From: Escherichia coli
GTDB taxonomy: Bacteria > Pseudomonadota > Gammaproteobacteria > Enterobacterales > Enterobacteriaceae
Reading direction: 5' to 3' (one strand)
DNA: 64,000 nucleotides
NCBI RefSeq assembly: GCF_003334405.1
Contig: NZ_QOWM01000001.1
Positions 7,970-8,723 of the stretch are shown piece after piece (the first letter of the stretch is position 1; each line of letters begins with the position of its first letter). A model generated the notes under the pieces. It had not been told where the DNA came from. It made no database searches and saw only the letters and a list, made by a program, of their open reading frames with translations. The translations under genes were made by a program, and so were the position numbers.

Positions 7970-8362
7970 TTATGCTGATTCGTCAATATCGAGACGGGCG
8001 AGGAAATTGCGAATTCCTTCACGTGACAAAAATTGCGCGACTTTTTCCTGCTCAATGTCTGTCATATTATCTATCGCGTTGATGATTTGTCGATACGCCG
8101 GGGCGCGTGCTCCAGGAGCGTATTCAGCAATTCTCTCTTCAGCTTCCATCAACATTGGTGTGTTATGGAAGGCTGGCGTGTTCTGAATAAACTCGCAAAC
8201 TTGCGTATCGACCAGAATAAGTCTGGCACGACCGCCTTTCACGCCGGGAAATTTTTCCGTTTTCCAGCCTTTTTCTCTGATCCAACGGTTAACAGTTTGT
8301 TTAGCCACACCGAGGCATTCAGCCAGTTCTTCGGTGGTCATTTTATTGCGTAATCTTTTCAT
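7970..8362 (-). CDS. yfeD: Small putative HTH DNA-binding protein (DUF1323-like)
   Basis: 130 aa; paralogous to the adjacent yfeC (shared T-EELA...QT-N-W-R-GW...PGV-GG-ARL pattern). Confidence 0.82.
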   Translation of the reverse strand: MKRLRNKMTTEELAECLGVAKQTVNRWIREKGWKTEKFPGVKGGRARLILVDTQVCEFIQNTPAFHNTPMLMEAEERIAEYAPGARAPAYRQIINAIDNMTDIEQEKVAQFLSREGIRNFLARLDIDESA

Positions 8363-8363
8363 A

Positions 8364-8723
8364 TTATTTGCTATCGCGAATCCCTAAGCGTTGTAACAAT
8401 CCGATAATCCCTTCCCGCAGAAGCAAGGATGTAAACTGTTTTTGTTCAACTGGCGTCATCTCTTTCGCCAGTGTCACCAGCAATACTTCAAGCGGCGCAT
8501 CACCAGAAAGGGCAGGCGCTTCTCCCTGACCTTCTGGACGTTCAGCATTGCGAATATATTCACGAACCTGTTCATTGACGTGAACCAGTCGGGCTTTGCC
8601 ACCCTGGACGCCAGGTTTTGGTGACGTTGTCCAGCCTTCCTTGCGTACCCATTTATTAATGGTCTGGCGGCTATAGCCGGTCAGTCTGGCAAGTTCATCT
8701 GGTGTCATCCTCTCCTTGAACAT
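8364..8723 (-). CDS. yfeC: Small putative HTH DNA-binding protein (DUF1323-like)
   Basis: 119 aa ORF per track; tandem paralogue of yfeD, 1-nt gap between them. Confidence 0.82.
   Translation of the reverse strand: MFKERMTPDELARLTGYSRQTINKWVRKEGWTTSPKPGVQGGKARLVHVNEQVREYIRNAERPEGQGEAPALSGDAPLEVLLVTLAKEMTPVEQKQFTSLLLREGIIGLLQRLGIRDSK

Follow-up and report, generated by a model that had tools for sequence, protein, structure and literature searches.

Escherichia coli yfeC and yfeD are very probably a vertically inherited operon of paralogous PF07037 regulators between gltX and tRNA-Ala

The small DNA-binding proteins YfeC and YfeD of Escherichia coli K-12 (b2398 and b2399) have been examined genome-wide, by ChIP-exo and RNA-seq for YfeC and by ChIP-exo for YfeD (Gao et al., 2021; PMC8464067), and the view taken in the initial annotation of this locus, that their function is uncharacterised, is therefore outdated. 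In that study both proteins were tagged, with 50 YfeC sites listed, of which 40% are intragenic, together with at least 36 YfeD sites. Deletion of yfeC altered the expression of 205 genes, 16 of 20 direct YfeC targets were repressed by the protein, and the study describes YfeC as mostly a repressor; by SUPERFAMILY classification both proteins were 'excisionase-like' (PMC8464067). Expression of yfeD itself rose by log2 4.3 (about 20-fold) in the yfeC deletion strain according to these data, a change that could reflect derepression or, alternatively, read-through out of a scar or cassette left by the deletion. Work cited in PMC8464067 found that a yfeC mutant over-produces extracellular DNA. Other published reports describe poorer colonisation of the neonatal-rat small intestine by a yfeC::kan K1 strain, and LEE expression that was unaffected by yfeC deletion in EHEC.

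The closest structurally described systems are the excisionases and related small winged-helix proteins. Xis, BldC, RacA and TorI share with the roughly 50 N-terminal residues of YfeC and YfeD a fold consisting of a helix-turn-helix (HTH) and a two-strand wing. In contrast to excisionase- and MerR-type proteins, however, YfeC and YfeD have no partner integrase and neither the long coiled coil nor the effector domain of the MerR type, and they carry a conserved C-terminal two-helix domain that those proteins lack. They differ likewise from the Mu repressor c and the MuA I-alpha domain (1qpm, 1tns) in having no transposase or repressor C-terminal region and in lying outside any Mu-like element. 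A further point of comparison is a group of viral proteins, PHROG 4151, which like YfeC and YfeD have an N-terminal winged HTH (wHTH) followed by helices; unlike yfeC and yfeD, their genes belong to the packaging module next to the large terminase subunit (TerL), and by every test made they fall outside the Pfam family that contains YfeC and YfeD.

We analysed a 64,000-nucleotide stretch of E. coli DNA, referred to here as the window. Between positions 7900 and 9100 it is 100% identical to many complete E. coli genomes, where RefSeq labels gltX, yfeD, yfeC and tRNA-Ala; the gene names and coordinates originally given for the pair match both these labels and the six-frame list of open reading frames (ORFs) exactly. 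In that list yfeC, the first gene of the operon, occupies 8364..8723 on the minus strand and encodes 119 aa from its first ATG (MFKERMTPDELARLTGYSRQTINKWVRKEGW...), and yfeD, the second gene, occupies 7970..8362 on the same strand and encodes 130 aa (MKRLRNKMTTEELAECLGVAKQTVNRWIREKGW...). The placement between gltX and tRNA-Ala also holds. The glutamyl-tRNA synthetase gene gltX (6503..7918, plus strand; ORF and annotation) is convergent with yfeD, and tRNA-Ala(GGC) (8944..9019, plus strand; ARAGORN and Rfam) is transcribed away from yfeC, with a near-consensus promoter, TTGACA-17-TATGAT, found by promoter scan at 8883-8911. The wider neighbourhood in the ORF list and annotation comprises xapR, tRNA genes, gltX, tRNA-Ala and pdeA. 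The tRNA-Val/Lys genes lie across gltX from the pair, and their 3' ends face away from it.

Two features distinguish the window from K-12, namely a single tRNA-Ala copy upstream of yfeC where K-12 has two, and the annotated start of YfeC; otherwise the genes show no substantive difference from the K-12 pair. In MG1655, yfeC is annotated from the second ATG (8708) to give 114 aa, whereas the window has the 119-aa start, as in PGAP. The ATG at 8723 is the better-supported start, since this first ATG and its Shine-Dalgarno sequence, AGGGAA (8729..8734, minus strand), are conserved in the aligned species as CAGGRAAT followed by ATG. The Shine-Dalgarno forms seen at this position are AGGGAA and AGGAAA. 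The RefSeq name for YfeD refers to the MerR family, and the MG1655 name for YfeC is 'DNA-binding transcriptional dual regulator'. yfeC and yfeD are an already known, core and lineage-restricted pair of small regulators.

The homology of the two ORFs, proposed from inspection of their sequences, is confirmed. YfeC and YfeD are true paralogues that align over their full length far beyond chance, with 38% identity over 127 columns (BLASTP, 84.7 bits, E 3e-27) and coverage of both the N- and the C-terminal parts. Of the shared core that had been described, the elements QT.N.W.R..GW and PGV.GG.ARL are real; the starting motif needs correction to MT-[PT]-[DE]-ELA from T-[PE]-[DE]-ELA. In alignments of the orthologues of both genes, MT..ELA, QT.N.W.R..GW and PGV.GG.ARL are invariant. 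Both proteins belong to Pfam PF07037 ('Transcription regulator YfeC-like', formerly DUF1323), with matches that cover the model from 1 to 122 of its 122 positions in each case (YfeD E 1.1e-63, YfeC E 4.5e-51). AlphaFold2 (AF2) models and alignment conservation show the architecture of this family in both, an N-terminal wHTH, a variable linker and a conserved C-terminal helical pair.

PF07037 is a small family. The two queries retrieved 570 and 189 clusters at 90% identity, and among 1.84 billion clusters at 50% identity only 234 representatives were matched at E<=1e-3, many of them fragments or unrelated multi-HTH proteins. Two metagenomic contigs bear on its history. L085 carries a single YfeC-like gene convergent with gltX-tRNA-Val-tRNA-Lys, its GltX being 74% identical to that of E. 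coli, and L083 carries a tandem YfeC-like pair beside a gltX whose product is 89% identical to the E. coli enzyme. Because the distant, single-copy member on L085 already adjoins gltX, the linkage to gltX is older than the duplication. We suggest that one gltX-linked ancestral gene was duplicated in tandem before the radiation of the Enterobacteriaceae to give yfeC and yfeD. Since then YfeD has changed at roughly twice the rate of YfeC, a difference suggestive of sub- or neo-functionalisation. One species carries three tandem copies.

The initial annotation saw a resemblance to phage-type DNA-binding proteins, and profile searches uphold it for the N-terminal domain, whose type is frequent among phage proteins. 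Pfam HTH_17 (PF12728) matches YfeD with E 4.9e-7. The excisionase model TIGR01764 scores 27.7 bits with YfeD and 18.7 bits with YfeC, in both cases below its curated cut-off of 28.8 bits, for YfeD only just. The Mu-type HTH model PF02316 is marginal (E 0.048). A profile search of PDB sequences found RacA and the N-terminal domain of MuA (1tns), each at E 0.011, for MuA again a marginal value, and the alignment with MuA spans the wing motif GW..GVKGGxA (GW..GVKGGKA) common to both. Membership of the MerR family was considered and rejected, as MerR_1 (Pfam) gives only E 0.24-0.32 and the models predict a disordered linker that leads into a short C-terminal hairpin of two helices; the RefSeq label 'MerR family' for YfeD is a loose one.

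Structural modelling gives a consistent picture of the domain layout. In the AF2 model of YfeC, built on a 14-sequence alignment (pLDDT 75), the wHTH spans residues 8-59 and consists of helices 8-15 and 19-29, a wing of two strands (33-35 and 45-48) that carries the GG loop, and a helix at 51-59; a disordered linker (64-74) then leads to helices 78-87 and 91-112. YfeD has the same layout in a second AF2 model, within a fused construct. The structural matches, with the tabulated value in brackets, were Mycobacteriophage Pukovnik Xis (4j2n; 6.6), pSK1 Par (6.1), BldC (6amk; 5.7), RacA (5i41; 5.7), a terminase small-subunit N-domain (7lxs; 5.3), TorI (1z4h; 5.0), Tn916 Xis (4.9), P2 Cox (4.6) and the Mu repressor (4.4, at 26% identity). 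With the whole protein as query, Foldseek found no more in the PDB than a local match to BldC and MarR alignments short of significance (TM about 0.35), and the C-terminal peptides of YfeC and YfeD had no sequence relative in the PDB. The class of the DNA-binding domain is thus the excisionase/MerR/Mu winged helix. Within it, SRQTINKW would lie at about the recognition helix, and a beta-hairpin wing would carry the invariant GW...PGV.GG.ARL; the linker is probably flexible and is poorly conserved, and the C-terminus would form a conserved two-helix hairpin (MT..EQ..L..LL.REGI.G.L.RLGI).

The two genes are most likely a co-translated operon of paralogous transcription regulators. Only 1 nt separates the stop codon of yfeC from the ATG of yfeD, and this spacing recurs in 54 of 79 species, with a 4-nt overlap in five and a maximum gap of 19 nt; such tight spacing implies co-transcription and, probably, translational coupling. 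We examined the conservation of the control region in an alignment of 28 upstream regions and by tabulation over 81. Conservation points to a candidate extended -10 element of the yfeC promoter (TGTTATAAA) at 8764..8772 on the minus strand, 46 nt before the start codon at 8723. TG-N-TATAA stands 43-47 nt from the ATG in 76 of the 81 upstream regions, with the block in another register in three loci and absent from one; a stringent consensus promoter scan did not call this element. At the other end, a bidirectional intrinsic terminator hairpin at 7936..7964 (also recorded as inverted repeat I1), with an 11-bp stem and T-rich runs on both strands, is common to the convergent gltX and yfeCD. We propose that yfeCD transcription would start from the extended -10 promoter that precedes yfeC by about 46 nt, that translation of the two genes would be coupled, and that transcription would end at the hairpin shared with gltX.

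Two palindromes stand out upstream of yfeC and are, judged from conservation, candidate operators. The imperfect palindrome GTCAC-GG-TTTC-CTG-TAAA-GT-GGTG (8771..8794, minus strand) abuts the -10 element. Its consensus, GTCAC-NN-TTTC-NNN-TAAA-NN-G[GA]TG, is kept in nearly all genera, and its flanks covary in part (CGTTTT..AAAACG, CATTTT..AAAATG, CCTTTT..AAAAGG). The second, TGCGAG-N4-CTCGCA (8811..8826, minus strand), is present in most genera in the 28-region alignment and degenerate in E. coli (TGGAAAACCGCTCGCA). It overlaps 8818-8831, which scored 11.5 and was the best match in the region when we applied a weak matrix of the TTTCCGGAAA type, built from published YfeC ChIP-exo sites; a role of this palindrome as a YfeC site is speculative. 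A search of Rfam over 5700-9400 returned only tRNAs and RtT; the yfeC leader matched none of the known RNA elements.

We considered how far the published binding data bear on control of the operon itself. The matrix was obtained by palindromic expectation-maximisation (EM) on 19 re-extracted YfeC ChIP-exo sites, and the motif that results is a weak palindrome, AATTTCCGGAAATT, with 0.1-0.8 bit per position and six matches scoring at least 11 in the 64 kb. We rejected the match at 8818-8831 as evidence of autoregulation, as there is no reported ChIP-exo peak there and the matrix is weak, and we retain it as a lead. The ChIP-exo site named for yfeC has the coordinates 2516052-2516085 in NC_000913.2. 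With an offset that we take to be about +1978, cross-checked on the adrA and yajI sites, it would fall at about 2518030-2518063 in NC_000913.3. So placed, it coincides with the alaX 3' end, at a distance of about 400 bp from yfeC, and not with the yfeC promoter. Among the sites listed, the strongest YfeC signal is at the chaB-chaC intergenic site, the YfeC and YfeD lists have essentially one site in common, and the rplU/ispB site recurs in the lists for YfeC, YfeD and YciT (PMC8464067). Several of the listed targets are transcribed at very high levels, among them ribosomal-protein genes, lpp and a tRNA 3' end. Regions of very high transcription are prone to ChIP artefacts.

The distribution of the pair is that of a core chromosomal locus. 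All 5426 complete E. coli genomes have some match, and 5251 have one place that accounts for at least 80% of the 1.2-kb query. Beyond E. coli, we scanned one genome per species (262 loci), the best 80 of which are all from Enterobacteriaceae, with genera that include Escherichia, Citrobacter, Salmonella, Klebsiella, Enterobacter, Kosakonia, Leclercia, Kluyvera and Atlantibacter. In every one of these best 80 species loci yfeC is followed by the second paralogue, in the order tRNA-Ala <- / yfeC -> yfeD -> / <- gltX. One to three copies of tRNA-Ala(GGC) lie upstream of yfeC in 78 of the 80, the other two being short of upstream flank, and of 77 loci informative for gltX, 69 have it in convergent orientation, with exceptions mostly in Kosakonia. 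Both genes are under strong purifying selection, with dN/dS relative to E. albertii, other Escherichia, Citrobacter and Salmonella of 0.06-0.17 for yfeC and 0.07-0.12 for yfeD. The GC content of the pair, 45-49%, is slightly below that of the flanking genes. Among 72,556 plasmid records 13 have a match, of which five are megabase-sized and 12 are typed non-mobilizable. We conclude that yfeCD is very probably a chromosomal, vertically inherited two-gene operon of paralogous PF07037 regulators and not a prophage remnant.

How such regulators might act can be outlined from the published data and the models. In vivo, YfeC occupies about 50 sites on the chromosome, and the list for YfeD has at least 36 (PMC8464067). 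The recognition helix would enter the major groove and the wing would contact the adjacent minor groove, as in the Mu repressor and Xis. We suggest that the C-terminal hairpin mediates dimerisation, an arrangement that would suit weakly palindromic sites of the TTTC..GAAA type. Once bound, YfeC would mostly repress nearby promoters, as the literature indicates.

Other readings of the locus have to be weighed against a conventional pair of regulators. YfeC and YfeD might instead be architectural or accessory DNA-binding proteins, arranged head-to-tail on AT-rich or degenerate repeats in the manner of BldC or Xis, or an obligate YfeC-YfeD heteromer serving the neighbouring translation genes (tRNA-Ala, gltX), proposals that we regard as improbable. 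The top structural matches, Xis, BldC, Par and RacA, are indeed array-binding or DNA-bending proteins, the ChIP motif is weak, and two fifths of the YfeC sites are intragenic. The constant linkage to gltX and to tRNA operons and the reported ChIP sites at alaX and several ribosomal-protein genes would fit a role close to translation, and the 1-nt gap implies co-translation. Synteny, however, can last without functional coupling. The ChIP-exo lists of YfeC and YfeD, nearly disjoint among the sites listed, argue against an obligate heteromer, though not decisively. A model of YfeC-(GGGGS)6-YfeD on a 38-species paired alignment has no confident interface (pTM 0.26, no rise in C-terminal pLDDT, from output without PAE). 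An obligate YfeC-YfeD heteromer is not supported.

It is comparably doubtful that YfeC and YfeD form a module tied to the translation apparatus, one that tunes tRNA and ribosomal-protein genes, with YfeD as a diverging partner or antagonist and the palindrome at 8771-8794 as an autoregulatory operator. Several observations lie in this direction. Distant single-copy relatives and all Enterobacteriaceae alike keep the linkage to gltX, tRNA-Ala and tRNA-Val/Lys, ChIP-exo signals are reported at alaX, rpmH, rpmB, rpsU and rplU, and the conserved palindromes lie in the control region common to yfeC and tRNA-Ala.

The proximity to a tRNA gene had led to the proposal that the pair is a phage remnant of the kind that persists beside tRNAs, and this has not been borne out. 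Integrases that target tRNA genes recombine in the 3' part of the gene, so that the resulting islands lie downstream of the tRNA. The pair, by contrast, lies on the 5' side of tRNA-Ala, upstream of its promoter and not at the 3' end of the tRNA. Neither the ORF list nor the annotation holds an integrase or phage gene near yfeCD, and the same neighbours recur across the 80 species; the 24-nt 3' end of tRNA-Ala has no second copy in the 64-kb window, and no att-like repeat was found there. The features expected of a genomic-island remnant at a tRNA are thus replaced by a 5' position, a core distribution fixed in 80 of 80 species, a GC content of 45-49% and dN/dS of about 0.1, with no phage genes and no repeat. 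Nor does the locus resemble an excisionase-bearing element, as it has neither a cognate integrase nor att boundaries.

The initial annotation proposed to look for homologues inside prophages; those in phage and viral collections proved scarce. Neither protein had a tblastn match at E<=1e-3 in 50,697 phage genomes, and Foldseek against BFVD likewise gave nothing at E<=1e-3. A scan of IMG/VR returned ten weak matches, with 28-50% identity over the matched segment. At the two of these loci that were examined, 147-aa proteins of PHROG 4151 (28-36% identity over the matched segment) are encoded directly before the gene for the terminase large subunit, and from this position upstream of TerL they are probably small terminase subunits. 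PHROG 4151 ('DNA binding protein') is also the best PHROG match of both proteins (YfeD E 7e-9, YfeC E 1.5e-6), and its match on YfeD, over residues 6-102, extends beyond the HTH. What YfeC and YfeD have in common with phage proteins is only the N-terminal DNA-binding fold. The phage interpretation had been set against a confident housekeeping assignment with no phage-associated homologues; a confident assignment, to vertical chromosomal inheritance, can now be made, but phage-associated relatives do exist, at the level of the HTH fold only.

An older origin in a mobile element could be imagined, in which a gene of the excisionase, Mu-repressor or small-terminase type, once integrated near tRNAs, was domesticated and kept for host use. 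We consider this unlikely. The Xis/MerR/Mu type of the N-terminal domain, the reach of the PHROG 4151 match past the HTH of YfeD and the tRNA genes that flank the region are all compatible with such a history. Yet the locus has neither an integrase or any other phage gene nor an att repeat; the genes lie 5' of tRNA-Ala, and the 3' ends of the tRNA-Val/Lys genes face away. The synteny is fixed in 80 species, with a gltX link that reaches distant members of the family, and purifying selection acts on both genes. The phage tblastn and BFVD searches were without a match at their threshold, and the two viral matches examined, proteins encoded before TerL, have mainly the HTH in common with the pair. 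A phage-type domain could conceivably have been recruited at a very early date.

Least plausible, and largely refuted, is a type II toxin-antitoxin pair of one DNA-binding antitoxin and one toxin, predicted for yfeCD by RASTA-Bacteria (2007), repeated in a 2018 TraDIS paper and in keeping with an operon of two small genes that are 1 nt apart and include one for an HTH protein. The two products are paralogues of the same DNA-binding architecture with no toxin domain (Pfam, NCBIfam, PADLOC), and cells that lack yfeC are viable despite a roughly 20-fold increase in yfeD (PMC8464067). The distribution is core, syntenic and non-mobile, unlike that of toxin-antitoxin loci, and one species has three tandem copies. 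PADLOC, applied to yfeCD with a defence or toxin-antitoxin role in mind, returned nothing beyond a weak HTH match to mad1.

The reading of yfeCD as a vertically inherited operon of paralogous regulators bears mainly on annotation. Neither a prophage scar nor a toxin-antitoxin locus is the right description of the pair. PF07037 is tiny and lineage-restricted, and its modest interest lies in the signal or partner of the C-terminal hairpin and in the reason why two, and rarely three, copies are kept.

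The RefSeq name for YfeD (window 7973-8362), 'MerR family transcriptional regulator', overstates its relationship to MerR, since the Pfam MerR_1 model scores the protein at only E 0.3 and YfeD, in contrast to typical MerR proteins, lacks the coiled-coil and effector region. YfeD also diverges about twice as fast as its paralogue YfeC when the window genes (7970-8723) are compared with the best 80 of 262 loci from a one-genome-per-species scan, all 80 of them from Enterobacteriaceae. Against Citrobacter and Salmonella, dN is ~0.20 for YfeD and ~0.11 for YfeC, and identity to the Enterobacter and Klebsiella orthologues is 45-57% and 70-80%, respectively; dN/dS is comparably low in the two genes. 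The length of YfeC itself depends on the annotation (window 8708-8723), with 114 aa in MG1655, counted from the second ATG, versus 119 aa in PGAP. The first ATG and its Shine-Dalgarno sequence are kept across the species aligned.

Comparison of upstream regions across genera places two conserved palindromic blocks, both on the minus strand, within a control region common to yfeC and tRNA-Ala. The flanks of the first (8771-8794) covary in part across genera, and the second, TGCGAG-N4-CTCGCA (8811-8826), is degenerate in E. coli. The published ChIP-exo site labelled 'yfeC' (Gao et al., 2021; PMC8464067) maps to ~2518030-2518063 of MG1655 (NC_000913.3), equivalent to ~8997-9030 of the window, and so covers the terminator and 3' end of alaX, a tRNA-Ala gene. 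The label 'chaA' is given to the strongest site, which in fact lies in the chaB-chaC intergenic region. Thus, judging from these two entries, the nearest-gene labels in that dataset are loose.

The window carries a single tRNA-Ala(GGC) gene (8944-9019) and one each of tRNA-Val and tRNA-Lys (6090-6244), whereas K-12-type genomes have two Ala copies (alaW and alaX) and three Val copies. In most E. coli genomes the match to a 1201-nt query from the window is 1316 nt long, and among the species loci compared the copy number ranges from 1 to 3 for Ala and from 1 to 5 for Val. The lower number in the window is due either to collapse of the repeats during assembly or to natural variation in the tandem array. 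Downstream of tRNA-Lys lies an RtT RNA element (Rfam RF00391; 5934-6059, minus strand, 46.7 bits), as is also annotated in K-12-type genomes.

PHROG 4151, the best PHROG match of both YfeC and YfeD, is annotated only as 'DNA binding protein'. Its members in two IMG/VR viral contigs (L087:4466-4909 and L088:5950-6393) each directly precede a terminase large subunit gene and weakly match small-terminase PHROGs; we therefore suggest that PHROG 4151 is probably a small terminase subunit.

P0001, a predicted 209-aa protein encoded on a 1-kb ENA metagenome contig, is identical to YfeC over 94% of its length and to YfeD over 75%, and probably arose artefactually through a frameshift or fusion. In Enterobacter sp. 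BIGb0383, three tandem YfeC-like genes, yfeC and two yfeD-like copies, stand ahead of gltX (L051:4366-5138, its yfeCD locus), which implies that the yfeCD locus can duplicate further.
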